DNA from: Escherichia coli
Lineage (GTDB): Bacteria; Pseudomonadota; Gammaproteobacteria; Enterobacterales; Enterobacteriaceae
Assembly: GCF_044324785.1 (NCBI RefSeq)
Contig: NZ_CP172127.1
Length of the DNA: 64,000 nt
Strand: one strand, 5' to 3'
Shown: in pieces, positions 8,109-32,840 of the stretch
How the letters are laid out: the number at the start of each line of letters is the position of its first letter
How positions within the stretch are numbered: the first letter of the stretch is position 1
Program-made: the position numbers and the translations under genes
Notes under the pieces: generated by a model
The model's input: only the letters and a program-made list of their open reading frames with translations
Told to the model about the DNA's origin: nothing
The model's database searches: none

Positions 8109-8138
8109 TAAGGGAGCTTTGAGTAGAAAACGCAGCGG

Positions 8139-10040
8139 ATGAAACTACAGAACTCTTTTCGCGACTATACGGCAGAGTCCGCGCTGTTTGTGCGCCGGGC
8201 GCTGGTCGCCTTTTTGGGGATTTTGCTGCTGACCGGCGTGCTTATCGCCAACCTGTATAATCTGCAAATTGTTCGCTTTACCGATTACCAGACCCGCTCT
8301 AATGAAAACCGCATTAAGCTGGTGCCTATCGCGCCCAGCCGCGGCATTATCTACGACCGTAACGGTATCCCTCTGGCCCTCAACCGCACTATCTACCAGA
8401 TAGAAATGATGCCGGAGAAAGTCGATAACGTGCAGCAAACGCTGGACGCTCTGCGCAGCGTGGTTGATCTGACCGATGACGATATTGCTGCATTCCGAAA
8501 AGAGCGTGCACGCTCACACCGTTTCACCTCCATTCCGGTGAAAACTAACCTGACCGAAGTACAAGTGGCGCGCTTTGCCGTCAATCAGTACCGTTTTCCG
8601 GGTGTCGAAGTTAAAGGCTATAAACGTCGTTACTATCCTTACGGTTCGGCGTTGACCCACGTCATCGGCTATGTGTCGAAAATCAACGATAAAGACGTCG
8701 AACGCCTGAATAATGACGGCAAACTGGCCAACTATGCAGCAACGCATGATATCGGTAAGCTGGGCATTGAGCGTTACTATGAAGATGTGCTGCACGGTCA
8801 GACCGGTTATGAAGAGGTTGAAGTTAACAACCGTGGGCGTGTTATTCGCCAGTTAAAAGAAGTACCACCGCAAGCCGGACACGATATTTACCTGACGCTG
8901 GATCTCAAACTCCAGCAATATATTGAAACGCTGCTGGCGGGTAGCCGCGCAGCGGTGGTAGTCACCGATCCGCGTACAGGTGGGGTGCTGGCGCTGGTTT
9001 CCACGCCTAGTTATGACCCAAACCTGTTTGTTGACGGTATCTCCAGCAAAGATTATTCCGCCTTGCTGAACGACCCGAATACACCGCTGGTGAACCGCGC
9101 CACACAGGGGGTTTATCCTCCCGCGTCTACAGTTAAACCCTATGTGGCGGTTTCGGCATTGAGCGCCGGAGTGATCACGCGCAATACGACGCTGTTTGAC
9201 CCAGGCTGGTGGCAACTGCCAGGTTCGGAAAAACGTTATCGTGACTGGAAAAAATGGGGCCACGGGCGTCTGAATGTCACAAGATCGCTGGAAGAATCTG
9301 CGGATACCTTCTTCTATCAGGTGGCCTACGATATGGGGATCGATCGCCTCTCCGAATGGATGGGTAAATTCGGTTATGGTCATTACACCGGTATCGACCT
9401 GGCGGAAGAACGTTCCGGCAACATGCCTACCCGCGAATGGAAACAGAAACGCTTTAAAAAACCGTGGTATCAGGGTGACACCATTCCGGTTGGTATCGGT
9501 CAGGGTTACTGGACAGCGACCCCAATCCAGATGAGTAAGGCACTGATGATCCTGATTAATGACGGTATCGTGAAGGTTCCGCATTTGCTGATGAGCACCG
9601 CCGAAGACGGCAAACAGGTGCCATGGGTACAGCCGCATGAACCGCCCGTCGGCGATATTCATTCCGGTTACTGGGAGCTGGCGAAAGACGGTATGTACGG
9701 TGTTGCTAACCGCCCTAACGGTACAGCGCATAAATACTTTGCCAGCGCACCGTACAAAATTGCGGCGAAATCTGGTACCGCTCAGGTCTTCGGTCTGAAA
9801 GCGAACGAAACCTATAATGCGCACAAAATTGCCGAGCGTTTACGTGACCACAAACTGATGACTGCCTTTGCGCCATACAACAATCCGCAAGTGGCTGTCG
9901 CCATGATTCTGGAGAACGGTGGCGCGGGTCCAGCGGTTGGTACGCTGATGCGCCAGATCCTCGACCACATTATGCTGGGTGATAACAACACCGATCTGCC
10001 TGCGGAAAATCCAGCGGTTGCCGCAGCGGAGGACCATTAA
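8139..10040 (+). CDS. mrdA: Penicillin-binding protein 2 (elongasome transpeptidase)
   Basis: 633 aa; N-terminal TM segment; transpeptidase motifs STVK and KSGTA. Confidence 0.95.
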
Positions 10041-10042
10041 TC

Positions 10043-11155
10043 ATGACGGATAATCCGAATAAAAAAACATTCTGGGATAAAGTCCATCTCGATCCCACAA
10101 TGCTGCTGATCTTACTGGCATTGCTGGTTTACAGCGCCCTGGTTATCTGGAGCGCCAGCGGTCAGGATATTGGCATGATGGAGCGTAAAATCGGCCAAAT
10201 CGCGATGGGTCTGGTCATCATGGTGGTGATGGCGCAAATTCCTCCACGCGTTTATGAAGGCTGGGCCCCCTATCTCTATATCATCTGTATTATTTTGCTG
10301 GTGGCGGTAGATGCTTTTGGTGCCATCTCTAAAGGCGCTCAACGCTGGCTGGATCTCGGTATCGTTCGTTTTCAGCCGTCGGAAATTGCCAAAATAGCCG
10401 TACCACTGATGGTAGCGCGCTTTATCAACCGCGACGTTTGCCCGCCGTCGTTGAAGAACACAGGCATCGCGCTGGTACTGATATTTATGCCCACGCTGCT
10501 GGTGGCTGCGCAGCCTGACCTGGGGACATCAATCCTCGTTGCGCTTTCCGGTCTGTTTGTACTGTTCCTCTCTGGCCTTAGCTGGCGTCTGATTGGCGTC
10601 GCAGTAGTGCTGGTGGCGGCGTTCATTCCTATTCTGTGGTTCTTCCTGATGCATGATTACCAGCGCCAGCGCGTAATGATGCTCCTGGACCCGGAATCAG
10701 ACCCACTCGGCGCGGGCTATCATATTATTCAGTCTAAAATTGCTATTGGCTCCGGTGGATTACGCGGCAAAGGCTGGCTGCACGGTACTCAGTCACAGCT
10801 TGAATTTCTCCCCGAACGCCATACCGACTTTATCTTCGCGGTACTGGCGGAAGAGCTGGGATTAGTGGGCATTTTGATTCTGCTCGCTCTCTACATTCTG
10901 CTGATCATGCGCGGGCTGTGGATAGCCGCCAGAGCGCAAACCACCTTTGGTCGCGTCATGGCTGGCGGCTTAATGCTGATATTATTCGTTTATGTCTTCG
11001 TAAATATTGGTATGGTAAGCGGTATTCTGCCGGTTGTAGGGGTTCCGCTCCCACTGGTCAGTTATGGAGGATCGGCGCTAATTGTGCTGATGGCTGGGTT
11101 CGGGATTGTAATGTCAATCCACACCCACAGGAAAATGTTGTCGAAAAGCGTGTAA
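10043..11155 (+). CDS. mrdB: Peptidoglycan glycosyltransferase RodA (SEDS family)
   Basis: 370 aa polytopic membrane protein immediately after mrdA. Confidence 0.95.
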
Positions 11156-11165
11156 GAGGTGCGCA

Positions 11166-12254
11166 ATGCGTAAGCAGTGGCTCGGGATCTGCATCGCGGC
11201 AGGAATGCTCGCGGCATGTACAAGCGATGATGGTCAGCAACAGACGGTAAGTGTACCGCAGCCTGCGGTATGTAACGGCCCCATAGTTGAAATTAGCGGG
11301 GCGGACCCGCGTTTCGAACCACTGAACGCGACGGCAAATCAGGATTACCAGCGCGACGGTAAAAGCTACAAAATCGTGCAGGATCCGTCTCGATTTAGCC
11401 AGGCGGGACTGGCGGCAATCTATGATGCCGAACCCGGCAGTAACCTGACGGCCTCTGGCGAAGCATTCGATCCGACACAGCTGACAGCGGCCCATCCAAC
11501 GCTTCCGATCCCCAGCTACGCCAGAATCACTAACCTGGCTAACGGACGAATGATCGTGGTGCGCATTAATGATCGCGGTCCTTACGGCAACGACCGCGTT
11601 ATTTCGCTTTCTCGCGCGGCAGCTGACCGTCTTAACACGTCAAACAACACCAAAGTTCGTATCGATCCGATTATTGTCGCCCAGGATGGTTCGCTTTCTG
11701 GTCCTGGTATGGCCTGTACCACAGTTGCCAAACAGACTTACGCCCTGCCTGCACCTCCCGATTTAAGCGGTGGCGCGGGAACAAGTTCAGTGTCTGGCCC
11801 GCAGGGTGACATTCTTCCGGTCAGTAATTCGACGCTAAAAAGCGAAGATCCGACCGGCGCGCCGGTAACCAGCAGCGGTTTCCTCGGTGCACCAACGACG
11901 TTAGCGCCTGGTGTGCTGGAAGGCAGCGAACCAACACCTGCGCCACAGCCCGTTGTTACAGCCCCCTCGACAACGCCTGCAACCTCGCCTGCAATGGTGA
12001 CACCGCAAGCCGCCTCACAAAGCGCCAGCGGCAACTTTATGGTGCAAGTCGGGGCCGTTAGCGATCAGGCTCGTGCGCAACAGTACCAACAGCAACTGGG
12101 ACAGAAGTTCGGCGTCCCCGGTCGCGTAACTCAAAATGGCGCAGTCTGGCGGATCCAGCTTGGCCCATTCGCCAGCAAAGCCGAAGCCAGTACCTTGCAG
12201 CAACGTTTGCAAACCGAAGCCCAATTACAGTCATTTATTACCACCGCGCAGTAG
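11166..12254 (+). CDS. rlpA: Septal ring lytic transglycosylase RlpA (lipoprotein, SPOR domain)
   Basis: 362 aa; lipobox LAAC; Pro/Thr/Ser-rich linker; C-terminal SPOR-like region. Confidence 0.93.
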   Translation: MRKQWLGICIAAGMLAACTSDDGQQQTVSVPQPAVCNGPIVEISGADPRFEPLNATANQDYQRDGKSYKIVQDPSRFSQAGLAAIYDAEPGSNLTASGEAFDPTQLTAAHPTLPIPSYARITNLANGRMIVVRINDRGPYGNDRVISLSRAAADRLNTSNNTKVRIDPIIVAQDGSLSGPGMACTTVAKQTYALPAPPDLSGGAGTSSVSGPQGDILPVSNSTLKSEDPTGAPVTSSGFLGAPTTLAPGVLEGSEPTPAPQPVVTAPSTTPATSPAMVTPQAASQSASGNFMVQVGAVSDQARAQQYQQQLGQKFGVPGRVTQNGAVWRIQLGPFASKAEASTLQQRLQTEAQLQSFITTAQ

Positions 12255-12393
12255 CGTAAAGCAGGCATCTGATGTGTCAATTTCTGTAAATGACGTTAAC
12301 AAAGTCACGCGGAAAGTCAGATGCCTGCCGGTAGTGCATTTGCTATAGTAGGGCACTTTTTTTAATTCCATCACGGATGTCGTAGTTCAGACC

Positions 12394-13605
12394 ATGAATA
12401 CCATTTTTTCCGCTCGTATCATGAAGCGCCTGGCGCTCACCACGGCTCTTTGCACAGCCTTTATCTCTGCTGCACATGCCGATGACCTGAATATCAAAAC
12501 TATGATCCCGGGTGTACCGCAGATCGATGCGGAGTCCTACATCCTGATTGACTATAACTCCGGCAAAGTGCTCGCCGAACAGAACGCAGATGTCCGCCGC
12601 GATCCTGCCAGCCTGACCAAAATGATGACCAGTTACGTTATCGGCCAGGCAATGAAAGCCGGTAAATTTAAAGAAACTGATTTAGTCACCATCGGCAACG
12701 ACGCATGGGCCACCGGTAATCCGGTATTTAAAGGTTCTTCGCTGATGTTCCTCAAACCGGGCATGCAGGTTCCGGTTTCTCAGCTGATCCGCGGTATTAA
12801 CCTGCAATCGGGTAACGATGCTTGCGTCGCCATGGCCGATTTTGCCGCTGGTAGCCAGGACGCTTTTGTTGGCTTGATGAACAGCTACGTTAACGCCCTG
12901 GGCCTGAAAAATACCCACTTCCAGACGGTACATGGTCTGGATGCTGATGGTCAGTACAGCTCCGCGCGAGATATGGCGCTGATCGGCCAGGCGTTGATCC
13001 GTGACGTACCGAATGAATACTCGATCTATAAAGAAAAAGAATTTACGTTTAACGGTATTCGCCAGCTGAACCGTAACGGTCTGTTATGGGATAACAGCCT
13101 GAATGTCGACGGCATCAAAACCGGACACACTGACAAAGCAGGTTACAACCTTGTTGCTTCTGCGACTGAAGGCCAGATGCGCTTGATCTCTGCGGTGATG
13201 GGCGGACGTACTTTTAAAGGCCGTGAAGCCGAAAGTAAAAAACTGCTGACCTGGGGCTTCCGTTTCTTCGAAACCGTTAACCCACTGAAAGTAGGTAAAG
13301 AGTTCGCCTCTGAACCGGTTTGGTTTGGTGATTCTGATCGCGCTTCGTTAGGTGTTGATAAAGACGTGTATCTGACCATTCCGCGTGGCCGCATGAAAGA
13401 TCTGAAAGCCAGCTATGTGCTGAACAGCAGTGAATTGCATGCGCCGCTGCAAAAGAATCAGGTCGTCGGTACTATCAACTTCCAGCTTGATGGCAAAACG
13501 ATCGAACAACGCCCGCTGGTTGTGCTGCAAGAAATCCCGGAAGGCAACTTCTTCGGCAAAATCATTGATTACATTAAATTAATGTTCCATCACTGGTTTG
13601 GTTAA
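12394..13605 (+). CDS. dacA: D-alanyl-D-alanine carboxypeptidase PBP5
   Basis: 403 aa; signal peptide; SLTK, SGN and KTGHT active-site motifs. Confidence 0.95.
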
Positions 13606-13654
13606 AAATCGAACACTTGAAAGTGTAATTTCCGTCCCCATATACTAAGCATCA

Positions 13655-13695
13655 GTAAAAAACTCCCGCCTTCTGGCGGGAGTTGCTATTTAATT
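13655..13695 (+). terminator. Intrinsic terminator downstream of dacA
   Basis: GC stem ACTCCCGCC/GGCGGGAGT with a 5-nt loop, then a T-rich tail. Confidence 0.6.
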
Positions 13696-13714
13696 ACGTT
13701 ACGCCGGAGCTGAC

Positions 13715-13978
13715 ATGAAAACCAAACTTAACGAACTGCTTGAATTCCCTACTCCTTTTACTTACAAAGTTATGGGGCAGGCGTTACCTGAGCTGGTTGA
13801 TCAGGTGGTTGAAGTGGTACAGCGCCATGCGCCAGGTGACTACACCCCAACGGTAAAACCAAGCAGCAAAGGCAACTACCACTCGGTATCTATCACTATC
13901 AACGCCACTCATATCGAGCAGGTTGAAACACTGTATGAAGAACTGGGTAAAATCGATATTGTCCGCATGGTTCTGTAA
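13715..13978 (+). CDS. ybeD: UPF0250/DUF493 protein YbeD
   Basis: 87 aa; conserved position between dacA and lipB. Confidence 0.9.
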
Positions 13979-14080
13979 CTCGCTTCTCCGTTACCCGGCT
14001 CCTGGTCGGGTAACTCCCCTCTCCTCGCTGTGATATACTTTTCCCCCCCACTTTTACTCATTCTCCACGGAGATGCCGTT

Positions 14081-14722
14081 TTGTATCAGGATAAAATTCT
14101 TGTCCGCCAGCTCGGTCTTCAGCCTTACGAGCCAATTTCCCAGGCTATGCATGAATTCACCGATACCCGCGATGATAGTACCCTTGATGAAATCTGGCTG
14201 GTCGAGCACTATCCGGTATTCACCCAAGGGCAGGCAGGAAAAGCGGAGCACATTTTAATGCCGGGTGATATTCCGGTGATTCAGAGCGATCGCGGTGGGC
14301 AGGTGACTTATCACGGGCCGGGGCAACAGGTGATGTATGTGTTGCTTAACCTGAAACGCCGTAAACTCGGTGTGCGTGAACTGGTGACCTTGCTTGAGCA
14401 AACAGTGGTGAATACCCTGGCTGAACTGGGTATAGAAGCGCATCCTCGGGCTGACGCGCCTGGTGTCTATGTCGGGGAAAAGAAAATTTGCTCACTGGGT
14501 TTACGTATTCGACGCGGTTGTTCATTCCACGGTCTGGCATTAAACGTCAATATGGATCTTTCACCATTTTTACGTATTAATCCTTGTGGGTATGCCGGAA
14601 TGGAAATGGCTAAAATATCACAATGGAAACCCGAAGCGACGACTAATAATATTGCACCACGTTTACTGGAAAATATTTTAGCGCTACTAAACAATCCTGA
14701 CTTCGAATATATTACCGCTTAA
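14081..14722 (+). CDS. lipB: Octanoyltransferase LipB
   Basis: ORF track 14030..14722 trimmed to the in-frame TTG giving [10 protein letters not shown] and 213 aa; start assignment is from memory of the E. coli protein. Confidence 0.88.
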
Positions 14723-14981
14723 TTCCATACATCAATGGCCCAATTTACACTGGGTCATTACTCATAATACCTGCTAATGCTTTACATCTCCTTCGCGTTT
14801 GTATATTTTCTTTATCACTTGCAGAAATGCGATGCTACGCCTTGCTCCGTAACTCACCCCATTGATTAACTTATTGAAATAGTTGATTATGGTGAGCAAA
14901 AGCGTTCCGTTCCAATTAGACATAAGATTATTGTAATTTTTTTAAATATTATTTTTCCATGAATAAAATTGGAGTAAGTGC

Positions 14982-15935
14982 GTGGATAGTAATAATCAAA
15001 TTGAAACCTGTTTAAGCAGAAAGTCGTCAGAAGGTAAACCACAAATATTTACAACCTTACGAAATATTGATCTTAACCTTCTGACTATTTTTGAAGCTGT
15101 ATATGTACATAAAGGGATCGTTAATGCAGCGAAAGTGCTTAATCTGACACCCTCGGCAATCAGTCAGTCTATTCAGAAACTGCGCGTTATATTCCCTGAC
15201 CCATTGTTTATTCGCAAAGGCCAGGGTGTCACTCCTACCGCATTTGCGATGCATCTACATGAGTATATCAGTCAGGGCCTTGAGTCCATTCTTGGCGCGC
15301 TGGATATCGAAGGAAGCTATGATAAGCAACGAACGATAACTATTGCGACCACCCCCTCGGTCGGAGCCCTGGTCCTTCCTGTCATCTATCGGGCGATTAA
15401 AACTCACTATCCGCAGCTTTTACTGCGCAATCCGCCCATCAGCGACGCGGAAAACCAACTCAGTCAGTTTCAAACCGATCTCATCATCGATAACATGTTT
15501 TGCACCAATCGTACGGTGCAACATCATGTTCTGTTCACCGACAATATGGTGTTAATTTGCCGTGAGGGAAATCCACTACTCTCTTTAGAAGATGACAGGG
15601 AGACTATCGACAACGCTGCGCATATACTCCTGTTACCGGAAGGGCAAAATTTCAGCGGTCTGCGGCAGAGAGTTCAAGAGATGTTTCCGGACCGGCAAAT
15701 CAGTTTCACCAGCTACAACATTTTGACAATCGCTGCACTGGTTGCCAACAGTGACATGTTAGCGATTATTCCCAGCCGTTTTTATAACCTGTTTAGCCGT
15801 TGTTGGCCGCTAGAAAAACTGCCTTTTCCGTCCTTAAATGAGGAGCAAATAGATTTCTCTATCCACTACAACAAATTCAGCCTGCGTGATCCCATCCTGC
15901 ACGGGGTAATAGATGTTATCCGTAATGCATTTTGA
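14982..15935 (+). CDS. ybeF: LysR-family transcriptional regulator
   Basis: 317 aa; N-terminal HTH and LysR substrate-binding fold; GTG start with GGAG upstream. Confidence 0.88.
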   Translation: MDSNNQIETCLSRKSSEGKPQIFTTLRNIDLNLLTIFEAVYVHKGIVNAAKVLNLTPSAISQSIQKLRVIFPDPLFIRKGQGVTPTAFAMHLHEYISQGLESILGALDIEGSYDKQRTITIATTPSVGALVLPVIYRAIKTHYPQLLLRNPPISDAENQLSQFQTDLIIDNMFCTNRTVQHHVLFTDNMVLICREGNPLLSLEDDRETIDNAAHILLLPEGQNFSGLRQRVQEMFPDRQISFTSYNILTIAALVANSDMLAIIPSRFYNLFSRCWPLEKLPFPSLNEEQIDFSIHYNKFSLRDPILHGVIDVIRNAF

Positions 15936-16143
15936 AAAAGTATTGTTACAGCCAGATCACAGCGAAGAGCGAAAAAATGGCACAATCCAACAACAATTTT
16001 ACATTTTCGCGACCGCTTTGGCTGCTTTCAGGTCCGTTTCAATGATATACTGCCAGTCGTTAATTCAAAAATAGTTGATAATTACAACAATCTATTGAAT
16101 TGAAACGCTTTCCTTCGTAATTCGCAACTGGAACACGCACGCT

Positions 16144-17109
16144 ATGAGTAAACCCATTGTGATGGAACGCGGTGTTAAATACCGCGATGCCGATAAGATG
16201 GCCCTTATCCCGGTTAAAAACGTGGCAACAGAGCGCGAAGCCCTGCTGCGCAAGCCGGAATGGATGAAAATCAAGCTTCCAGCGGACTCTACACGTATCC
16301 AGGGCATCAAAGCCGCAATGCGCAAAAATGGCCTGCATTCTGTCTGCGAGGAAGCCTCCTGCCCTAACCTGGCGGAATGCTTCAACCACGGCACAGCAAC
16401 GTTTATGATCCTCGGCGCTATTTGTACCCGCCGTTGTCCGTTCTGTGACGTTGCCCACGGTCGCCCGGTAGCTCCGGATGCCAATGAACCAGTGAAACTG
16501 GCGCAGACCATTGCCGATATGGCGTTGCGTTATGTGGTTATCACCTCCGTTGACCGTGATGACCTGCGCGATGGCGGTGCCCAGCACTTTGCGGATTGCA
16601 TTACTGCCATTCGGGAAAAAAGCCCGCAAATCAAAATTGAAACTCTGGTGCCGGATTTCCGCGGTCGTATGGATCGTGCTCTGGATATTCTGACCGCCAC
16701 ACCACCAGATGTGTTCAACCATAACCTGGAAAACGTACCGCGTATTTACCGTCAGGTACGGCCTGGTGCAGATTACAACTGGTCGCTGAAGCTGCTGGAA
16801 CGCTTTAAAGAAGCGCATCCGGAAATCCCGACCAAGTCTGGTCTGATGGTGGGTCTGGGTGAAACCAATGAAGAAATTATTGAGGTAATGCGCGACCTGC
16901 GCCGTCATGGTGTGACGATGCTAACGCTGGGGCAATATTTGCAGCCAAGCCGCCATCACCTGCCGGTTCAACGTTACGTTAGCCCGGATGAGTTCGACGA
17001 AATGAAAGCCGAAGCGCTGGCGATGGGCTTTACCCATGCTGCATGCGGTCCGTTTGTCCGCTCGTCTTACCACGCCGATTTGCAGGCGAAAGGGATGGAA
17101 GTTAAGTAA
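16144..17109 (+). CDS. lipA: Lipoyl synthase (radical SAM)
   Basis: 321 aa; radical-SAM cluster motif CTRRCPFC plus N-terminal auxiliary-cluster Cys motif. Confidence 0.96.
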
Positions 17110-17147
17110 TCCTGTAATAATTACTTACATCTGTCTGATAAAAAACC

Positions 17148-17180
17148 CGCTTTTTGAAGCGGGTTTTTTGTATCGAACAA
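17148..17180. terminator. Bidirectional intrinsic terminator between convergent lipA and tatE
   Basis: AAAAAACCCGC-TTTTTGAA-GCGGGTTTTTT: hairpin flanked by an A-run and a T-run. Confidence 0.8.
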
Positions 17181-17209
17181 GATATTGAGGGAGCGTCCTG
17201 CTCGCCACG

Positions 17210-17413
17210 TCACTCTTTATGAGAGAGCTTTTCAGCCTGAAGATCAACGTCTGCGCCTTTTTTCGCCGCAGCATCGTCATCATTCATCGCCTTCTTGAAC
17301 CCTTTAATGGCCGCTCCAAGGTCTCCGCCCAGCGTACGTAACTTCTTAGTCCCAAACAGCAGAACGACCAGCGCCGCAACTACCAGCAGTTTGGTAATAC
17401 TAATCTCACCCAT
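17210..17413 (-). CDS. tatE: Twin-arginine translocase subunit TatE
   Basis: 67 aa; TatA/E-type N-terminal TM helix and amphipathic helix. Confidence 0.93.
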
Positions 17414-17541
17414 AGATACCTTCTTGACATATAACCGGCAACAGAACGCGCCTTAAAAACCAGAGAATATTAACGGTCATTCGACGCGCGCACACAATAG
17501 CAATCTGTAACAAGGTGAATCAAGCGCCGAGTAAAAAAACA

Positions 17542-18336
17542 TCATAATAATTGCGGCGGCGCAAAGCGACGGTTGTTTAAGACGGGCAGTTGCGCGCGCA
17601 CCTGACGCACACGTTCAGGCGTCACTTCCGCCATAATGAGTGCAGGCATTTCTGACGCTGCCGCAATGGTGACGCCAAAGGGATCTATAATTCGGCTTTG
17701 CCCGATATTTTTGTTCCCGCACTCCCCCGCCGCCACCATATAACAGGTGGTATCCAGCGCACGAGCGGCAAGCAACGTTGACCAGTGATGCTCTTTGAGC
17801 GGCCCACGAACCCAGGCGGCAGGAAGTACCAGGATTTCAGCTCCCTGTAATGCCTGTGCCAGCGCCAGCTCTGGAAAGCGTAAGTCATAACAGGTCATCA
17901 GACCGACCTTCATCCCTTCCACCTCCAGTAACGGAGCTATTTCATTACCAGCATCAACATGGCGTGATTCCTGAATGGCAAATGCATCATAGAGATGCAG
18001 TTTGGCATAACGGGCGACGATGTTTCCTGCCTGTAGCGCCACCAGCATATTCCATGCGCGCCCCGGCGTTGAAGGAACATGAATCGTCAGAATTGTCGTC
18101 ATCATGTTACGTTTACTTTCTCGCCGTAAACGTCCGAGGAATTCGCCTTCCAGCAGCTGTGCTGATTTAACCGATAGATCTGCATCATGATCATCACGCG
18201 CCAACAATGCTTCCGGCAGGACAAACAGCGAAACGTCGTTTTCCGCCGCCTGCGCCATCAACGAGGCACAAATCTCAGCGTTCTTTTCCCACACAGATGT
18301 AACAGCAAACTGTCCTGCGGCAACCAGCATTGCCAC
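17542..18336 (-). CDS. ybeM: C-N hydrolase (nitrilase superfamily) YbeM, intact
   Basis: 264 aa uninterrupted ORF; start may be the second Met. Confidence 0.85.
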
Positions 18337-18425
18337 CTCCTCCTGTCAGAGTCGTAAAATTCGCCAACGGCGATTATTCGGCGTTACACTTATCACTCAT
18401 ACAAATCAAATAGCAGGATTTTGCA

Positions 18426-18809
18426 GTGTTACAACTTCTTTTAGCAGTTTTTATTGGCGGTGGTACGGGAAGCGTGGCGAGATGGCTGTTAAGTATGCGA
18501 TTTAACCCGCTGCATCAAGCGATTCCGCTGGGGACGCTGGCTGCAAACCTGATTGGGGCATTCATCATAGGAATGGGATTCGCCTGGTTTAGCAGGATGA
18601 CGAACATTGATCCAGTGTGGAAAGTATTAATCACCACCGGATTTTGTGGCGGTCTAACAACCTTCTCAACATTTTCGGCAGAAGTGGTGTTTTTGTTACA
18701 AGAGGGCCGCTTTGGCTGGGCGTTACTGAACGTTTTCGTCAACCTTTTGGGGTCTTTTGCCATGACCGCACTGGCTTTCTGGCTGTTTTCCGCCTCAACC
18801 GCACACTAA
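18426..18809 (+). CDS. crcB: Fluoride ion channel CrcB/FluC
   Basis: 127 aa, four TM helices; GTG start. Confidence 0.92.
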
Positions 18810-18813
18810 AGAC

Positions 18814-18845
18814 CAAAAAAACCCGCTGATTAAGCGGGTTTTGAA
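18814..18845. terminator. Bidirectional intrinsic terminator between crcB and cspE
   Basis: AAAAAAACCCGC-TGATTAA-GCGGGTTTTG. Confidence 0.75.
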
Positions 18846-18861
18846 TTCTTGCTGACGTATC

Positions 18862-19071
18862 TTACAGAGCGATTACGTTTGCAGCAGAAGGGCCTTTGGC
18901 ACCGTTAGTGATTTCGAACTCTACGCGCTGACCTTCAGCAAGAGTTTTAAAACCATTAGTCTGGATTGCAGAGAAGTGTACGAACACGTCTTTGCTGCCG
19001 TCTTCCGGAGTAATGAAACCGAATCCTTTGGACTCATTAAACCACTTAACGTTACCTTTAATCTTAGACAT
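18862..19071 (-). CDS. cspE: Cold-shock-domain protein CspE
   Basis: ORF track 18862..19155 trimmed to [12 protein letters not shown] (69 aa); RNP1 motif KGFGFI. Confidence 0.95.
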
Positions 19072-19245
19072 CAAAATTACCTTTACATGAAAAATAGACA
19101 CAAATGCTGTGTCGGTTACCAGTACACCAATTGTGGTACGCTTTGTCCAGTGCAACTTTACTAAAAAGTGATAAAAGTCGCGTTATTTTTGATGTTACTT
19201 ATTTTAGTTATTGATTTTAAAGAAGTTACTAAAACTTCATTTGTC

Positions 19246-19806
19246 TCAAAACTGAAAGCGCATCCAGGCAAAGTACACATTGCCATTGTTGTAGGTACCC
19301 GGAATGTAGGTCATCTGAAAAGTCACTGGACCATAACCCACAGAGGCCAATGGCAGTAGAACCGGGAGAGGGATGTAATTCCAGTTATCGCGTGCCGTTA
19401 CGCCAGCGGTGAATCCCAGACCTAAATGAAAATTTTCATCCGCCAGCGGTCGCCAGGTACTTTCCCATCCGTATCCGGCAATCGGTTCCCATTTGTTCCA
19501 CGAGTCCTTAAATGCCATGGCATACAGGCCATGCCAGTTTCCTTTTTCATCCCAACGCGACAGGCCAAAACCGCCACCCCACGGTCGCTCGTTATAGCGA
19601 TCGGTTTTTTCTTTGTCGTAAGCGAAACGTGCATGCCAGGTGATGGCAGGAATATATAAATCATAATGTTCAGGCTGTTGCCAGGTTTGTGCAATATTTT
19701 CTCTAAACGTTGTCATCCACTCATCTGCGTTAGCAAAAACTTTACCAACGCTGATTAACTGAATAAAAACAAAGGAAAAGATAGCGACATATTTACTCAC
19801 GTTCAT
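19246..19806 (-). CDS. pagP: Lipid A palmitoyltransferase PagP (outer-membrane beta-barrel)
   Basis: ORF track 194 aa trimmed to MNVSKY (186 aa); signal peptide and aromatic-rich barrel. Confidence 0.93.
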
Positions 19807-20291
19807 TTGTGACCATAAAACATTTATCAAAAATCTACTACCAGCATAGCAAAGCTACAATTAACATAACCTTAATAGCCCCAACATAAAGAATAATCTG
19901 AATAGCTGCTCTATTTATTTCCGCTTGTTTAAGTTAAATATTTCCGCGCATCGATTAAAGATGATGCGTCGTTTTCTGCGATGGGAATAGTCAAAAAAGA
20001 AAAACCAAGTCTTTTTTGATGACAAAATGCAATCAAGGAAAAATTATTTTATTTTTTAACGAGATACAACAATCATCTTAACGAAGTATATAATATATAT
20101 CGTCAACCCATGCTCATGATAGATTATTTTATGAGCACGCAACCGCAGCTAACACCATTGCAATTAACAAATTTGCATCAATCCTCCATCAATTTACACA
20201 CATTATTATGTGATAATTGCCAACCGCTAAATATGCGTTTTGTTATCTATGTATAAAAACAGCAACTTCAATGTCTTAATGGCAGTTTTTC

Positions 20292-20305
20292 TTGATTTTA
20301 ATCAG
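20292..20305. promoter_or_regulatory. Candidate FNR half-site pair (TTGAT-N4-ATCAG) upstream of dcuC
   Basis: Matches TTGAT-N4-ATCAA at 9 of 10 positions, about 90 bp upstream of the dcuC ATG; dcuC is anaerobically induced. Confidence 0.35.
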
Positions 20306-20394
20306 CATTCATCGCCAATTTATTGGGCATATTTTTTCCTTAAGCTTTAGGAATTTTTTATTATTTACTTTGGGGCCTGGAGACAGGAAAAATT

Positions 20395-21780
20395 ATGCTG
20401 ACATTCATTGAACTCCTTATTGGGGTTGTGGTTATTGTGGGTGTAGCTCGCTACATCATTAAAGGGTATTCCGCCACTGGCGTGTTATTTGTCGGTGGCC
20501 TGTTATTGCTGATTATCAGTGCCATTATGGGGCACAAAGTGTTACCGTCCAGCCAGGCTTCAACAGGCTACAGCGCCACGGATATCGTTGAATACGTTAA
20601 AATATTGCTAATGAGCCGCGGCGGCGACCTCGGCATGATGATTATGATGCTGTGTGGCTTTGCCGCTTACATGACCCATATCGGCGCGAATGATATGGTG
20701 GTCAAGCTGGCGTCAAAACCATTGCAGTATATTAACTCCCCTTACCTGCTGATGATTGCCGCCTATTTTGTCGCCTGTCTGATGTCTCTGGCCGTCTCTT
20801 CCGCGACCGGTCTGGGTGTTTTGCTGATGGCAACCCTGTTTCCGGTGATGGTAAACGTTGGTATCAGCCGTGGTGCAGCTGCTGCTATTTGTGCCTCCCC
20901 GGCGGCGATTATTCTCGCACCGACTTCAGGGGATGTGGTGCTGGCGGCGCAGGCTTCCGAAATGTCGCTGATTGACTTCGCCTTCAAAACGACGCTGCCT
21001 ATCTCAATTGCTGCAATTATCGGCATGGCGATCGCCCACTTCTTCTGGCAACGTTATCTGGATAAAAAAGAGCACATCTCTCATGAAATGTTAGATGTCA
21101 GTGAAATCACCACCACTGCTCCTGCGTTTTATGCCATTTTGCCGTTCACGCCGATCATCGGAGTGCTGATTTTTGACGGCAAATGGGGTCCGCAATTACA
21201 CATCATCACTATTCTGGTGATTTGTATGCTGATTGCCTCCATTCTGGAGTTCATCCGCAGCTTTAATACCCAGAAAGTTTTCTCTGGTCTGGAAGTGGCT
21301 TATCGCGGGATGGCAGATGCATTTGCAAACGTGGTGATGCTGCTGGTTGCCGCTGGGGTATTCGCTCAGGGGCTTAGCACCATCGGCTTTATTCAAAGTC
21401 TGATTTCTATCGCTACCTCGTTTGGTTCGGCGAGCATCATCCTGATGCTGGTATTGGTGATCCTGACAATGCTGGCGGCAGTCACGACCGGTTCAGGCAA
21501 TGCGCCGTTTTATGCGTTTGTTGAGATGATCCCGAAACTGGCGCACTCTTCCGGCATTAACCCGGCGTATTTGACTATCCCAATGCTGCAGGCGTCAAAC
21601 CTCGGCCGTACCCTGTCACCCGTTTCTGGCGTAGTCGTTGCGGTTGCCGGGATGGCGAAAATCTCACCATTTGAAGTCGTAAAACGCACCTCGGTGCCGG
21701 TGCTTGTTGGGCTGGTGATTGTTATCGTTGCTACAGAGCTGATGGTGCCAGGAACGGCAGCCGCGGTCACAGGCAAGTAA
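20395..21780 (+). CDS. dcuC: Anaerobic C4-dicarboxylate transporter DcuC
   Basis: 461 aa polytopic membrane protein. Confidence 0.95.
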   Translation: MLTFIELLIGVVVIVGVARYIIKGYSATGVLFVGGLLLLIISAIMGHKVLPSSQASTGYSATDIVEYVKILLMSRGGDLGMMIMMLCGFAAYMTHIGANDMVVKLASKPLQYINSPYLLMIAAYFVACLMSLAVSSATGLGVLLMATLFPVMVNVGISRGAAAAICASPAAIILAPTSGDVVLAAQASEMSLIDFAFKTTLPISIAAIIGMAIAHFFWQRYLDKKEHISHEMLDVSEITTTAPAFYAILPFTPIIGVLIFDGKWGPQLHIITILVICMLIASILEFIRSFNTQKVFSGLEVAYRGMADAFANVVMLLVAAGVFAQGLSTIGFIQSLISIATSFGSASIILMLVLVILTMLAAVTTGSGNAPFYAFVEMIPKLAHSSGINPAYLTIPMLQASNLGRTLSPVSGVVVAVAGMAKISPFEVVKRTSVPVLVGLVIVIVATELMVPGTAAAVTGK

Positions 21781-21785
21781 ATAGT

Positions 21786-21816
21786 CATGCCGGAGGCAAG
21801 TTTCCTCCGGCTTTAT
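21786..21816. terminator. Hairpin terminator between convergent dcuC and dpiA
   Basis: GCCGGAGG-caagttt-CCTCCGGC followed by TTTAT. Confidence 0.7.
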
Positions 21817-21820
21817 CATG

Positions 21821-22501
21821 TCACCCACTGTGGTATATGCGTTGCGGTCTGCCAACTTTGCCGTGAACAATTTCAGCAATAATCAGATGGCGGCTGGCGC
21901 AATATTCAAGATAACGTCTGGCAGTGGTGCGGCTGATAGTCAGTGCCTGCGCCACCGTTTCTGCCGTATGTTGCACACCAGGCTCTTTAAACAGTTTTCG
22001 CACTGCGTTTAGCGTCAAGGGGTCAATGCCGGTCGGCAGTTCGTCTTTGGGTTCACCGCGAGCATAGGCATTAAACATCTCATCAATTTGCTTCTGGCTG
22101 GCGCTATCAATACTTTCCAGCATATGTTTACGCTGGCGGAAGCGGGTTAGCGTTTGCCCCAGCCGTTCATAGGCAATTGGCTTAATGAGATAATCAAATA
22201 CACCACAACGTACGGCTTCAGACACCGTTTCCATATCACTGGCTGCAGTGGTAAACACCACGTCGCCGGGATAATGCGCCTGCACCAGTTCATGCAGTAA
22301 ATTAATCCCTCTACCGTCAGGAAGATAGTTATCAAGCAAGATTAGCCCCGGCTTAAAACGCTCGATCATCATTCGGGCCTGCGCCAGGTTTCCCGCCAGT
22401 AATATCTGACTGAATCCGGGAATGTGACGAATATATTCCGCATGCATCTCTGCCAGCGGCGTTTCGTCCTCAACGATCAATAGGGTTAATGGAGCTGTCA
22501 T
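21821..22501 (-). CDS. dpiA: Two-component response regulator DpiA (CitB)
   Basis: 226 aa; receiver domain with conserved Asp plus C-terminal HTH. Confidence 0.93.
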   Translation of the reverse strand: MTAPLTLLIVEDETPLAEMHAEYIRHIPGFSQILLAGNLAQARMMIERFKPGLILLDNYLPDGRGINLLHELVQAHYPGDVVFTTAASDMETVSEAVRCGVFDYLIKPIAYERLGQTLTRFRQRKHMLESIDSASQKQIDEMFNAYARGEPKDELPTGIDPLTLNAVRKLFKEPGVQHTAETVAQALTISRTTARRYLEYCASRHLIIAEIVHGKVGRPQRIYHSG

Positions 22502-24128
22502 TAGGTTTCACTTTCGGAATATAGATTGAAAATAAGGTACCGCAGGGATCATTATCTTCGAGAGTGATAACACCACCGCAGCGCGTTACGTAGCTGGCAA
22601 TCAAGTACAACCCAATGCCATGTTCGCCGGGCTCGTCAGCACGCGTACTGACACCCTGCTCAAATATTTTGTCTCGTAGAGACTCTGGAACGCCGCAGCC
22701 CTGATCGGCGACTTCAATCACCACATCATCGCCTTCATCGCTGAGGAATAATTCAACGATCTTGTTTCCTTCATCGCTACGTAGGCTGGCTTCGAAGGCG
22801 TTATCAAGTAAATTGCCAACAATGGCTGCAAACTCGGTGCTGTCCAGTCCTGGCGGCAGTTGCGAAAGCTGACTTCCGGGGACGATGACCATTTTTAGCC
22901 CCAGTTCGCGGGCGCGCTGCACTTTACCAAAAAGCAGCCCCGCCACCTGGCGATCGGCAAACGCCTCGCGCAGGCTATCAATAAGCTGTTGCTGGGCCTG
23001 AGACTCCCCCTGCACCATCGCCAACACGCGATCATACTCTTTCATCTGCAACAGACCATTGAGCGTCGACATCCAATTGAGATGCTCGTGTCGCAATGTG
23101 CGCAGGCTCTCGACGTATTGTTTAATTTGCGTCAGTTGCGCATTGAGGGTGGATATTTCGTCTTTACTACGAAAGCTGATAATGGCCCCCAGCAAATCAT
23201 CACCTGAACGAATAGCTTCCCGGTTGGCAATAACGCTCAGACCGTTAAAGTTCGCCACCACATCCTGACGTTTTTCATCAATCTGTTCGGTAAAGAAATC
23301 GGCGGGCCTGACCACTTCAGCAATGGGTTTACCCAACCATTGCCGTCCGGGGGAACTCAGACCCAGCATCTTTCTTGCGTTACGATTGATGGCGGTAATG
23401 TAACCATGCGGATCCACCGCAATGAGCCCTTCATAAACCGAACTAAACAGCGCCTCTTGCTGACGGACCACGCGTGCGATTTGCTTTGGCTCCATGCCCA
23501 TCATCTGCCGACGGATATGCGCGGCCAGGAACCACGATAGCAACATCAGAATCCCTAACAGCACGACAAACACGCCAGCCATCGGTAATAAAAACTCAGC
23601 CCGCCAGCTATCAATTTTACTCACCAGGTAGCCAATCGACACCACGCCGATGACTTTTCCATCGTCATCAAAGATTGGCGTTTTGGCACGCATCGCCATG
23701 CCAATTGACCCTTTCCCGGTGATGAAGTAGCTCTCTCCTTTCTCCAGCGCGCCCGGTTTGGTGAACTGCATAGGATAACCAATTTTCTCCGGATTAGGAT
23801 GGTAAAGACGAATCGAGTGCCGATCGCCAATCACCACATAATCAAAATCGGTATCTCTTTGTAATTTGTTAGCGATGGTCGCCAGCCTCTTGTAGTCACG
23901 CGTTTTCACTGCGCTGATGATACTGTCATTAGAAGCAATAATTTTTGCCTGATTCATTGCCATGTCGCGCACATGAAGCGTTAAATAGTCCTCAAAACTG
24001 GCCGTAAAATATTGCGCCAGGGCTGCAATGACAAATATTGAGAACACCAGAATCAGCAAAAAGATACGCAGCGGAAATGCCAGTCTTTGGAAAAATGCAA
24101 ACTGTTTATTCTCGTTAAGCTGCAACAT
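22470..24128 (-). CDS. dpiB: Sensor histidine kinase DpiB (CitA)
   Basis: ORF track 22470..24188 trimmed to the ATG giving MLQLNENKQ (552 aa); two TM segments around a periplasmic domain, HATPase_c; 32-nt overlap with dpiA. Confidence 0.92.
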   Translation of the reverse strand: MLQLNENKQFAFFQRLAFPLRIFLLILVFSIFVIAALAQYFTASFEDYLTLHVRDMAMNQAKIIASNDSIISAVKTRDYKRLATIANKLQRDTDFDYVVIGDRHSIRLYHPNPEKIGYPMQFTKPGALEKGESYFITGKGSIGMAMRAKTPIFDDDGKVIGVVSIGYLVSKIDSWRAEFLLPMAGVFVVLLGILMLLSWFLAAHIRRQMMGMEPKQIARVVRQQEALFSSVYEGLIAVDPHGYITAINRNARKMLGLSSPGRQWLGKPIAEVVRPADFFTEQIDEKRQDVVANFNGLSVIANREAIRSGDDLLGAIISFRSKDEISTLNAQLTQIKQYVESLRTLRHEHLNWMSTLNGLLQMKEYDRVLAMVQGESQAQQQLIDSLREAFADRQVAGLLFGKVQRARELGLKMVIVPGSQLSQLPPGLDSTEFAAIVGNLLDNAFEASLRSDEGNKIVELFLSDEGDDVVIEVADQGCGVPESLRDKIFEQGVSTRADEPGEHGIGLYLIASYVTRCGGVITLEDNDPCGTLFSIYIPKVKPNDSSINPIDR

Positions 24129-24507
24129 TGTTTTCCTTGCGGGTTGTCCCGAGCCTCTTTGACGAATGTAATTAAAATGTTGAATCAAAATACATAGATA
24201 TTAAATATAATCGTGGCAAATTTTATTCATTAAATCAATTAAATCACTTAAACCTGCGGGTCATTTCGTAATTACATTAATTAAAAAACTTAAAACCATT
24301 AAATAAATAAAAAACCACTAACTCTATGTGAAATAAATCAAAATTTCACGCTGCAATACTCCTTAGGATGTATAGCGAAAGGAGAAAAAGATATACCTCG
24401 ATCGCCCCCCTTTCTCCCAAGTGAAAATAAAAGGTTATCAGTTTGCAACATCGAACAACATTCGTTGCAAATCGATAACAACATGCACCTTCAGGATACT
24501 ATTTATT

Positions 24508-25566
24508 ATGTTCGGCAATGATATTTTCACCCGTGTAAAACGTTCAGAAAATAAAAAAATGGCGGAAATCGCCCAATTCCTGCATGAAAATGATTTGAGC
24601 GTTGACACCACAGTCGAAGTATTTATTACCGTAACCCGCGATGAAAAGCTTATCGCGTGCGGTGGAATTGCCGGAAATATTATTAAATGCGTTGCTATCA
24701 GTGAATCCGTTCGCGGTGAAGGACTGGCGCTGACATTAGCCACCGAGCTAATTAACCTCGCCTATGAGCGGCACAGCACGCATCTGTTTATTTATACCAA
24801 AACCGAATACGAGGCGCTGTTCCGCCAGTGCGGTTTTTCCACGCTGACCAGTGTACCCGGCGTGATGGTGCTGATGGAAAACAGCGCCACGCGACTGAAA
24901 CGCTATGCCGAATCGCTGAAAAAATTTCGTCATCCAGGGAACAAGATTGGCTGCATTGTGATGAACGCCAATCCCTTTACGAATGGTCACCGTTATCTGA
25001 TTCAACAGGCTGCAGCACAGTGCGACTGGCTGCATCTGTTTTTAGTTAAAGAAGATTCTTCACGCTTTCCCTATGAAGACCGGCTGGATCTGGTGTTAAA
25101 AGGCACCGCCGATATTCCACGCCTGACTGTGCATCGCGGCTCCGAATACATCATCTCCCGCGCTACGTTCCCTTGCTACTTCATTAAAGAACAGAGCGTC
25201 ATTAACCATTGTTACACCGAAATTGATCTGAAGATTTTCCGTCAGTACCTCGCTCCCGCGCTGGGTGTAACTCACCGCTTTGTCGGTACTGAACCCTTTT
25301 GTCGCGTTACCGCCCAGTACAACCAGGATATGCGCTACTGGCTGGAAACGCCGACTATCTCCGCACCGCCCATCGAACTGGTTGAAATTGAGCGGCTGCG
25401 TTACCAGGAGATGCCGATATCCGCTTCCCGGGTACGTCAACTGCTGGCGAAAAACGATCTCACGGCTATCGCGCCGCTGGTCCCTGCAGTCACGCTGCAT
25501 TATTTGCAGAACCTGCTTGAGCACTCCCGCCAGGACGCGGCAGCTCGTCAAAAGACCCCCGCATGA
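24508..25566 (+). CDS. citC: [Citrate (pro-3S)-lyase] ligase
   Basis: ORF track 24421..25566 trimmed to MFGNDIFTRV (352 aa); divergent from dpiB. Confidence 0.92.
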   Translation: MFGNDIFTRVKRSENKKMAEIAQFLHENDLSVDTTVEVFITVTRDEKLIACGGIAGNIIKCVAISESVRGEGLALTLATELINLAYERHSTHLFIYTKTEYEALFRQCGFSTLTSVPGVMVLMENSATRLKRYAESLKKFRHPGNKIGCIVMNANPFTNGHRYLIQQAAAQCDWLHLFLVKEDSSRFPYEDRLDLVLKGTADIPRLTVHRGSEYIISRATFPCYFIKEQSVINHCYTEIDLKIFRQYLAPALGVTHRFVGTEPFCRVTAQYNQDMRYWLETPTISAPPIELVEIERLRYQEMPISASRVRQLLAKNDLTAIAPLVPAVTLHYLQNLLEHSRQDAAARQKTPA

Positions 25567-25580
25567 GAAACAGGTGAAAA

Positions 25581-25877
25581 ATGAAAATAAACCAGCCCGC
25601 CGTTGCAGGCACCCTTGAGTCTGGGGATGTGATGATACGCATCGCCCCACTCGATACGCAGGATATCGACCTGCAAATCAACAGCAGCGTTGAAAAACAG
25701 TTTGGTGATGCCATTCGCACCACCATTCTGGACGTTCTCGCCCGCTACAACGTGCGCGGCGTACAGCTGAATGTCGATGACAAAGGCGCACTGGACTGCA
25801 TTTTACGTGCACGACTGGAAGCCCTGCTGGCACGCGCCAGCGGTATCCCGGCTCTGCCATGGGAGGATTGCCAATGA
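25581..25877 (+). CDS. citD: Citrate lyase acyl carrier protein (gamma subunit)
   Basis: 98 aa. Confidence 0.93.
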
Positions 25878-26782
25878 TTTCCGCTTCGCTGCAACAACGT
25901 AAAACTCGCACCCGCCGCAGCATGTTGTTTGTGCCTGGTGCCAATGCCGCGATGGTCAGTAACTCATTCATCTACCCGGCTGATGCCCTGATGTTTGACC
26001 TCGAAGACTCCGTGGCATTGCGTGAAAAAGACACAGCCCGCCGCATGGTTTACCACGCGCTGCAACATCCGCTGTATCGCGATATTGAAACCATTGTGCG
26101 TGTCAACGCGCTGGATTCCGAATGGGGTGTCAACGACCTGGAAGCCGTCGTTCGCGGTGGTGCGGACGTTGTGCGTCTGCCGAAAACCGATACCGCTCAG
26201 GATGTTCTGGATATCGAAAAAGAGATCCTGCGTATCGAAAAAGCCTGTGGTCGTGAACCCGGCAGCACCGGCCTGCTGGCGGCGATTGAATCTCCGCTGG
26301 GCATTACCCGCGCAGTGGAAATCGCTCACGCTTCCGAGCGTTTGATCGGTATCGCCCTCGGTGCAGAAGACTATGTGCGCAACCTGCGTACAGAACGCTC
26401 CCCGGAAGGAACTGAACTGCTGTTCGCACGCTGTTCCATTTTGCAGGCCGCGCGCTCTGCGGGTATTCAGGCGTTCGATACCGTCTATTCCGACGCTAAT
26501 AACGAAGCCGGATTCCTGCAAGAAGCCGCCCACATCAAACAGCTGGGCTTTGACGGCAAATCGCTGATCAACCCGCGTCAGATTGATCTGCTGCACAACC
26601 TCTACGCACCGACCCAGAAAGAAGTGGATCACGCCCGCCGCGTCGTAGAAGCCGCTGAAGCCGCCGCTCGCGAAGGCCTCGGCGTGGTTTCCCTGAACGG
26701 CAAGATGGTGGACGGTCCGGTTATCGATCGCGCCCGTCTGGTGCTCTCCCGCGCAGAACTTTCCGGCATCCGCGAAGAATAA
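25874..26782 (+). CDS. citE: Citrate lyase beta subunit (citryl-CoA lyase)
   Basis: ORF track 25859..26782 trimmed to [10 protein letters not shown] (302 aa); ATGA overlap with citD. Confidence 0.93.
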
Positions 26783-26792
26783 GGCAATCAAA

Positions 26793-28325
26793 ATGACGCA
26801 GAAAATTGAACAATCTCAACGACAAGAACGGGTAGCGGCCTGGAATCGTCGCGCTGAATGCGATCTTGCCGCTTTCCAGAACTCGCCAAAGCAAACCTAC
26901 CAGGCTGAAAAAGCGCGCGATCGCAAACTGTGCGCCAACCTGGAAGAAGCGATTCGTCGCTCTGGTTTACAGGACGGCATGACTGTTTCCTTCCACCACG
27001 CTTTCCGTGGCGGTGACCTGACCGTCAATATGGTGATGGACGTCATCGCGAAGATGGGCTTTAAAAACCTGACTCTGGCCTCCAGCTCCCTGAGTGATTG
27101 CCATGCGCCGCTGGTAGAACACATTCGCCAGGGCGTGGTTACCCGCATTTATACCTCTGGCCTGCGCGGTCCACTGGCGGAAGAAATCTCCCGTGGTCTG
27201 CTGGCGGAACCGGTGCAAATCCACTCTCACGGCGGACGTGTGCATCTGGTACAGAGCGGCGAACTGGATATCGACGTGGCTTTCCTCGGCGTCCCGTCCT
27301 GTGATGAATTCGGTAATGCCAACGGCTACACCGGTAAAGCCTGCTGCGGCTCCCTCGGCTATGCAATGGTTGATGCCGACAACGCAAAACAGGTTGTGAT
27401 GCTCACTGAAGAACTGCTGCCTTATCCGCATAATCCGGCAAGCATTGAGCAAGATCAGGTTGATCTGATCGTCAAAGTTGATCGCGTTGGCGATGCCGCG
27501 AAAATCGGCGCTGGCGCGACCCGTATGACCACTAACCCGCGCGAACTGCTTATTGCCCGTAGCGCTGCAGATGTGATTGTCAACTCTGGCTACTTCAAAG
27601 AAGGTTTCTCCATGCAAACCGGCACCGGTGGCGCATCGCTGGCGGTAACCCGTTTCCTGGAAGACAAAATGCGTAGCCGCGATATTCGCGCCGACTTCGC
27701 CCTTGGCGGTATTACCGCAACGATGGTTGACCTGCACGAAAAAGGTCTGATCCGCAAACTGCTGGATGTACAGAGCTTTGACAGCCACGCGGCACAATCG
27801 CTGGCCCGTAACCCCAATCACATCGAAATCAGCGCCAACCAGTACGCTAACTGGGGTTCAAAAGGCGCATCGGTTGATCGTCTCGACGTGGTGGTACTGA
27901 GCGCGCTGGAAATTGACACCCAGTTCAACGTTAACGTGCTGACCGGCTCTGACGGCGTACTGCGTGGTGCTTCCGGTGGTCACTGCGATACCGCGATTGC
28001 CTCTGCACTTTCCATCATCGTCGCACCGCTGGTACGCGGTCGTATTCCGACTCTGGTGGATAACGTGCTGACCTGCATCACCCCGGGCTCCAGTGTCGAT
28101 ATTCTGGTCACAGACCACGGTATCGCAGTTAACCCGGCACGTCCGGAACTGGCAGAACGTCTGCAGGAAGCGGGGATCAAGGTGGTTTCTATTGAGTGGC
28201 TGCGTGAACGTGCGCGTCTGCTGACCGGTGAACCACAGCCGATTGAATTCACCGACCGCGTCGTTGCCGTTGTGCGTTACCGCGATGGCTCGGTGATCGA
28301 TGTTGTGCATCAGGTGAAGGAATAA
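26793..28325 (+). CDS. citF: Citrate lyase alpha subunit (citrate CoA-transferase)
   Basis: 510 aa. Confidence 0.95.
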   Translation: MTQKIEQSQRQERVAAWNRRAECDLAAFQNSPKQTYQAEKARDRKLCANLEEAIRRSGLQDGMTVSFHHAFRGGDLTVNMVMDVIAKMGFKNLTLASSSLSDCHAPLVEHIRQGVVTRIYTSGLRGPLAEEISRGLLAEPVQIHSHGGRVHLVQSGELDIDVAFLGVPSCDEFGNANGYTGKACCGSLGYAMVDADNAKQVVMLTEELLPYPHNPASIEQDQVDLIVKVDRVGDAAKIGAGATRMTTNPRELLIARSAADVIVNSGYFKEGFSMQTGTGGASLAVTRFLEDKMRSRDIRADFALGGITATMVDLHEKGLIRKLLDVQSFDSHAAQSLARNPNHIEISANQYANWGSKGASVDRLDVVVLSALEIDTQFNVNVLTGSDGVLRGASGGHCDTAIASALSIIVAPLVRGRIPTLVDNVLTCITPGSSVDILVTDHGIAVNPARPELAERLQEAGIKVVSIEWLRERARLLTGEPQPIEFTDRVVAVVRYRDGSVIDVVHQVKE

Positions 28326-28328
28326 GCC

Positions 28329-29733
<1,405 letters not shown>

Positions 29734-29783
29734 TTATTTAAGCACTTGATAAATTTGGAAATATTAATTTTCGGAGAACTCGT

Positions 29784-31247: not shown

Positions 31248-31277
31248 TACGTTCGCCAAACGCTGAATAAATCATCA

Positions 31278-31313: not shown

Positions 31314-31360
31314 TGATTTAATAGATAGTATTCAGTGTATGTATGAGTTCCACACCCATT

Positions 31361-32807: not shown

Positions 32808-32840
32808 TCCCATCTGCACAAGCGATAACTCGCTTTGCCC

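Follow-up and report, generated by a model that had tools for sequence, protein, structure and literature searches.

The 64,000-nt stretch of DNA analysed here (the window) carries, at 17542..18330 on the minus strand, what is very probably an intact chromosomal copy of ybeM from a non-K-12 E. coli, encoding a 262-aa deaminated glutathione (dGSH) amidase orthologous to Nit1 and yeast Nit2. The ybeM gene, its function, its pseudogene status in K-12 and the use of the locus as a neutral insertion site (PMC7242477) are already known, and the finding is correct but ordinary and matters little. The analysis makes one modest addition, namely that the frameshift of K-12 occurs naturally, in hundreds of non-laboratory genomes, and predates K-12.

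The original prediction described an uninterrupted 264-codon reading frame of the nitrilase superfamily at 17542-18336, and this was borne out. The program-made list of open reading frames gave a minus-strand frame at 17542..18336 without an internal stop, 264 aa long with GTG as its first codon; the 264 codons are thus those of the maximal frame counted from GTG. This GTG (18336..18334) falls within a Shine-Dalgarno run, AGGAGGAGG (18344..18336, minus strand; read from the sequence), located 5 nt upstream of an ATG at 18330..18328. The coding strand upstream of ybeM reads ...GACAGGAGGAGGTGGCAATG, with an AGGAGG Shine-Dalgarno of which the GGAGG ends 5 nt before the ATG. In strain GMF054, the identical gene is given by RefSeq as a 789-nt coding sequence starting at the same ATG. 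Because the GTG lies inside the Shine-Dalgarno run and RefSeq uses the ATG start in GMF054, the biological coding sequence was taken as 17542..18330 (262 codons plus TGA), and the real start of ybeM is almost certainly the ATG at 18330, giving 262 aa. The two extra codons of the maximal frame, GTG GCA (18331..18336, minus strand), are probably untranslated leader. The match to the Pfam CN_hydrolase family and the presence of a frame of the same length in other enterobacterial genera argue that this is a real gene and not a chance reading frame.

Downstream of ybeM and on the same strand lies tatE (17210..17413, minus), whose product is 100% identical to K-12 TatE, and upstream lies the divergent gene crcB (fluoride channel; 18426..18809, plus), with a shared crcB-ybeM intergenic region of 95 bp. 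A simple sigma-70 consensus scan found no convincing ybeM promoter in these 95 bp, and over 17100..18900 the sigma-70 and terminator consensus sites were no more numerous than in shuffled sequence. A weak 5-bp hairpin at 17564..17551 is located within the 3' end of the ybeM coding sequence. Neither a fluoride riboswitch nor any other RNA element was detected in the crcB-ybeM intergenic region with Rfam at the gathering threshold; the sole family matched at this threshold was the cspA thermoregulator (RF01766), which covered the leader and coding region of cspE (18814..19256, minus strand; 123.6 bits against a gathering score of 78).

The assignment to the C-N hydrolases was confirmed by a match to Pfam PF00795 (CN_hydrolase) over residues 5-247 and profile positions 2-255 of 256, with 141.4 bits against a cutoff of 23.2 (E = 4.3e-41), and the product is more precisely named deaminated glutathione amidase, the Nit1 orthologue. 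Under this name, NCBIfam NF033621 matched residues 5-263 over profile positions 2-260 of 260 with 451.5 bits against a cutoff of 355, and it was the sole NCBIfam family above its curated cutoff for the window YbeM. The model of the YafV-type omega-amidase, PRK10438 (NF007757), gave a partial match over residues 90-254 that stayed at 61.5 bits against a cutoff of 249. The model of the Yersinia-type dGSH amidase (NF043013) reached 82.7 bits against 500, and that of aguB reached 63.3 against 410. Weak matches to the amidase models aguB, PRK10438 and formamidase had E-values from 1e-12 to 1e-17. The window protein was 100% identical to RefSeq WP_001305561.1 of strain GMF054, 'deaminated glutathione amidase' (EC 3.5.1.128), which occupies the same position between crcB and tatE and shows no protein-level difference from the window. 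In the nearest complete genome, ybeM differed from the window gene by two substitutions, both synonymous. All of the complete E. coli genomes sampled were annotated with a deaminated glutathione amidase between crcB and tatE.

Conservation beyond E. coli was assessed with 17 enterobacterial orthologues from the genera Escherichia, Citrobacter, Salmonella, Leclercia, Enterobacter, Kosakonia and Silvania, with 71-99% identity to the window protein. All were 262 aa long, and their alignment contained 120 invariant columns, including E40, K110, E121 and C147; the window YbeM had the consensus residue at every one of the 120. The gene order crcB / ybeM-tatE / lipA was kept in Salmonella enterica, E. 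fergusonii and Citrobacter sedlakii, in which ybeM is intact and 789 nt long, and ybeM also lies between crcB and tatE in E. coli GMF054 and K-12, indicating that the window gene is a positional orthologue of enterobacterial ybeM. Comparison of the window allele with three other taxa by the Nei-Gojobori method gave a dN/dS of about 0.06-0.12 (estimates of 0.056-0.111), a ratio that is rough because dS was saturated (>1.4). These values indicate that ybeM has evolved under purifying selection.

A Glu-Lys-Cys triad had been proposed as a check against the Nit family enzymes, and it was present in the window YbeM as E40, K110 and C147. These residues aligned to E54, K127 and C169 of C. elegans NitFhit (1EMS), the catalytic triad of that protein in the literature, and all three were invariant in the 17 orthologues. 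On the minus strand, the codon of Glu40 (general base) lies at 18211..18213, that of Lys110 at 18001..18003 and that of the nucleophile Cys147 at 17890..17892. Glu121 (17968..17970, minus), a second active-site glutamate within the motif (L/I)(M/Q)ES, aligned to E143 of 1EMS and was likewise invariant. Cys147 also aligned to the residue mutated in the yeast Nit2 C169S structure 4HGD. In a sequence search of the PDB, the best matches were NitFhit 1EMS (1.7e-29) and yeast Nit2 4H5U (1.1e-26), followed at a lower level by mouse Nit2 2W1V (4.4e-22) and yeast Nit3 1F89 (6.4e-20). An AlphaFold2 model of YbeM had a pLDDT of 79.4 and a pTM of 0.84, with low-confidence loops at 113-122, which includes Glu121, and at 252-262. 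When this predicted model was used as the query for Foldseek against the PDB, the top 50 matches all belonged to the nitrilase superfamily (TM 0.70-0.85). The best were Nit2 of K. lactis and S. cerevisiae (TM about 0.8, E about 1e-22), the top 14 were yeast Nit2 structures, and the matches included the C169S mutant structure 4HGD, to which a peptide-like ligand is bound. The window YbeM is thus predicted to adopt the alpha-beta-beta-alpha sandwich fold of the nitrilase superfamily. Because 1EMS and 4H5U outscored 2W1V and 1F89, and the top 14 Foldseek matches were yeast Nit2, the protein was placed nearer to the Nit1-type than to the Nit2/omega-amidase-type proteins.

By both sequence and fold, the best-matching relatives were therefore Nit1, yeast Nit2 (YJL126W) and the Nit domain of NitFhit, which have the same catalytic residues. 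The Nit1 group comprises the dGSH amidases of branch 10 of the nitrilase superfamily and, by the HMM name and two publications (PMC5714238, PMC10452834), would carry out the same reaction; in both publications, which cite Peracchi et al. 2017, Nit1 and yeast Nit2 are described as hydrolysing dGSH to 2-oxoglutarate and Cys-Gly. YbeM nevertheless differs from the eukaryotic Nit1 group in several respects: it is only 27-30% identical, it is 262 aa long compared with about 300, it has no Fhit fusion and, in the alignment, it is without the insertions that the yeast proteins carry around query residue 209. YafV, mammalian Nit2 and yeast Nit3, the 2-oxoglutaramate amidases, share the superfamily, the fold and the catalytic residues with YbeM and also act in metabolite repair (PMC8711792, PMC8788347). 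They form, however, a different orthologous group, in line with the low PRK10438 score and with Nit2 and Nit3 structures that scored below those of the Nit1 type. YbeM has been equated with NIT1/dGSH amidase and YafV with NIT2 (PMC8788347).

The compound dGSH (2-oxoglutaryl-L-cysteinylglycine) arises from mistaken transaminase action on glutathione. Enzymes of the nitrilase superfamily proceed through a thioacyl intermediate on the cysteine, with a glutamate as general base and a lysine and a second glutamate stabilizing the intermediate. By homology with this superfamily, Cys147 of YbeM would attack the amide carbonyl of dGSH, with Glu40 as the general base and with Lys110 and Glu121 stabilizing the tetrahedral intermediate; the thioacyl-enzyme formed would then be hydrolysed, yielding 2-oxoglutarate and Cys-Gly. 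In this scheme ybeM would have a housekeeping metabolite-repair function, which the one-base deletion at codon 67 in K-12 and some natural isolates would abolish by removing Lys110 and Cys147 from the product. Peracchi et al. (2017, PNAS) and the UniProt entry reportedly describe an assay of recombinant YbeM from E. coli. The literature and the name of the curated HMM point to dGSH as the substrate of YbeM, and the enzyme is presumably active and expressed in the window strain, to judge from its sequence. In the uropathogenic strain CFT073, NsrR binds near ybeM, and the ybeM transcript was 0.30-fold under NO (PMC5320621).

The original prediction that ybeM is a frameshifted pseudogene in K-12 MG1655 proved right, since the gene (b4581) is so annotated in NC_000913.3 at 658031..658818, with 788 nt. 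The pairwise alignment that had been suggested located the indel as one single-base deletion in K-12 at codon Arg67. This was the sole indel between the two alleles (GGACGTTT in the window, GGAC-TTT in K-12) and removes one G at CDS position 200. In the window, the base that is absent from K-12 and 859 other complete genomes, as given by the alignment and an 80-mer count, is the coding-strand G at 18131 (minus strand), in the middle of the Arg67 codon CGT (18130..18132). The K-12 product has 66 native residues followed by LYGEKVNVT, with a stop after 75 residues counted from ATG, and it is without Lys110 and Cys147. The K-12 gene otherwise occupies the same locus, has the same orientation relative to its neighbours and shares 98.3% nucleotide identity with the window gene. 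Thirteen further substitutions were found, of which three were nonsynonymous (V33A, V37A and H124R); Val37 is invariant in the orthologues and lies three positions before the catalytic Glu.

The distribution of the lesion was determined by exact matching in complete E. coli genomes. The 80-mer carrying the K-12 deletion was found in 860 of 5,424 genomes (~16%), and the 81-mer of the intact site in 3,533. The remaining genomes differ by substitutions, and those sampled, e.g., ATCC 25922, retain the full 81 nt. The intact gene is the majority and ancestral state; the deletion is derived, given the intact, syntenic 789-nt gene in E. fergusonii, Citrobacter sedlakii and Salmonella enterica. At least 15 of the 40 deletion carriers listed were isolates from humans, chicken, dog, bovine mastitis, river water and cucumber/food, with genomes of 4.7-5.0 Mb, and many of the other listed carriers were K-12 derivatives. 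One of the carriers is the chicken isolate ECCHD184, in which ybeM is marked 'frameshifted' by RefSeq. Because the site (ACGT) is not a homopolymer, the shared deletion is most readily explained as identity by descent. The 81-mer that exactly matches K-12 over codons 24-50, including V33A and V37A, was found in only 365 genomes, and all three of the rows sampled were laboratory strains. ECCHD184 retains Val33 and Val37, and the occurrence of the frameshift without V33A and V37A in this natural carrier indicates that the frameshift predates K-12. K-12 acquired V33A and V37A, both through T-to-C changes, later than the frameshift, and V37A alters an invariant residue. The two changes fit drift after inactivation, but two events make a weak case.

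A second kind of lesion was observed in one strain, JNE21-003 (E. coli O166:H15), in which an IS21-family element, ISEc62 (istA, istB), has disrupted ybeM independently by inserting into its 3' end; the truncated 5' part is still named 'deaminated glutathione amidase' by RefSeq. A 2-nt indel at the K-12 site in UTME-9 (NZ_CP157110.1) was considered as a further independent inactivation and rejected as a product of poor assembly: pagP, cspE, crcB, tatE and lipA were all flagged as frameshifted, with every gene from pagP to lipA affected. Low-quality records of this kind raise the number of pseudogenes that any census counts.

Single-base indels are the commonest assembly error, and a record such as UTME-9, frameshifted across the locus, illustrates how the difference between the window and K-12 could in principle be an artefact, caused either by missequencing of the K-12 reference or by a window error through which the frame is restored. 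This explanation is effectively refuted by the presence of the deletion in 860 complete genomes, by the RefSeq flag in the chicken isolate, by the non-homopolymeric ACGT site, and by the exact intact sequence in 3,533 genomes and in the outgroups. A different objection accepts the intact frame but regards the gene as silent, or in the course of being lost from E. coli as a neutral relic. The frequency of the frameshift, ~16% of complete genomes, does indicate that ybeM is dispensable. The persistence of this allele in varied natural isolates, the independent IS21-family insertion, the use of the K-12 locus as a neutral integration site (PMC7242477) and the absence of a clear promoter in the consensus scan would all suit a relic. 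We nevertheless consider a relic very improbable, since the gene shows a dN/dS of 0.06-0.12 in comparisons between genera, its length and synteny are fully preserved, its catalytic residues do not vary among the orthologues, the intact 81-mer is exact in 3,533 genomes, and changes in the ybeM transcript have been measured in CFT073 (PMC5320621).

It is also conceivable that YbeM is an active amidase of the nitrilase superfamily with another substrate, e.g., 2-oxoglutaramate (as an omega-amidase) or some other small amide. Specificity is not readable from sequence tools, the aguB, PRK10438 and formamidase models gave weak matches (1e-12 to 1e-17), and Nit1-type enzymes have a minor omega-amidase side activity. 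Against this, only NF033621 exceeded its curated cutoff, with PRK10438 at 61.5 against 249 and aguB at 63.3 against 410; the closest structures by sequence and fold were of the Nit1 type and not of the Nit2/Nit3 type; and the Nit2 orthologue of E. coli is a separate protein, YafV (PMC8788347, PMC8711792). A different substrate therefore appears very improbable, and an intact dGSH amidase gene remains by far the preferred reading of the window ybeM.

On this preferred reading, the window represents a non-K-12 E. coli with a housekeeping metabolite-repair enzyme still in place, and the K-12 reference is the atypical one at ybeM. Annotation carried over from K-12 would mislabel the window gene as a pseudogene, and studies of dGSH or glutathione damage in K-12 use a strain that is naturally null for ybeM. 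The ybeM frameshift appears to be an older loss-of-function allele in natural circulation, with a share of ~16% of complete genomes, or roughly 9% when the K-12-type genomes are subtracted. On a rather unlikely further reading, its loss would be adaptive or dGSH repair niche-specific; strains with the intact and the frameshifted gene would then provide a natural test of what metabolite repair contributes to fitness, for which nitrosative or oxidative stress would be one candidate niche, given the NsrR binding near ybeM.

The window was colinear with K-12 610749..676352 in reverse orientation, with 93-98.4% identity. The original prediction of a non-K-12 E. coli, together with a ybdR difference from K-12, agreed with the 93.4-98.4% identity and with the absence of ybdR from the window. 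Intact ybeM excludes only a K-12-like lineage and otherwise says little about strain identity; because it is the majority state, the non-K-12 conclusion is carried by the genome-wide divergence and not by ybeM. Among 62 K-12 proteins used as queries, 59 had intact counterparts in the window, either full-length or truncated by the window edge; entD lies beyond the window end, and ybdR and the K-12 yldA had no counterpart. In 24 kb of the window (8000..32000) compared with 5,426 complete RefSeq E. coli genomes, the best match was N3 (99.3%), followed by 042 and an ST70 strain (99.1%). As the best match reached only 99.3%, the source strain is not closely represented among these genomes.

Several other differences from K-12 were observed in the window. 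The interval 32805..33162, which separates the end of rnk (32804) from the start of uspG (33163), contains neither ybdR nor the K-12-type yldA; K-12 has about 1.6 kb (641884..643496) at this junction. Of 5,426 complete E. coli genomes, 1,815 have this ybdR-less junction as contiguous sequence, which makes it a common presence/absence polymorphism. Over the segment 35428..42807, identity to K-12 was only 93.4%, against 97-98% in the flanks, and the alignment had 23 gap openings. The segment contains citR (37337..38236), whose product was only 88% identical to the K-12 protein, compared with 97-100% for the neighbouring proteins, and this block has the appearance of an allele that has diverged or recombined. 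In the fepB-entC intergenic region (50051..50238), the window is cleanly without 186 bp found in K-12 (NC_000913, about 624540..624724). This extra K-12 sequence contains a GC-rich imperfect inverted repeat with 41-nt arms that are 76% complementary, and it resembles a small intergenic repeat element.
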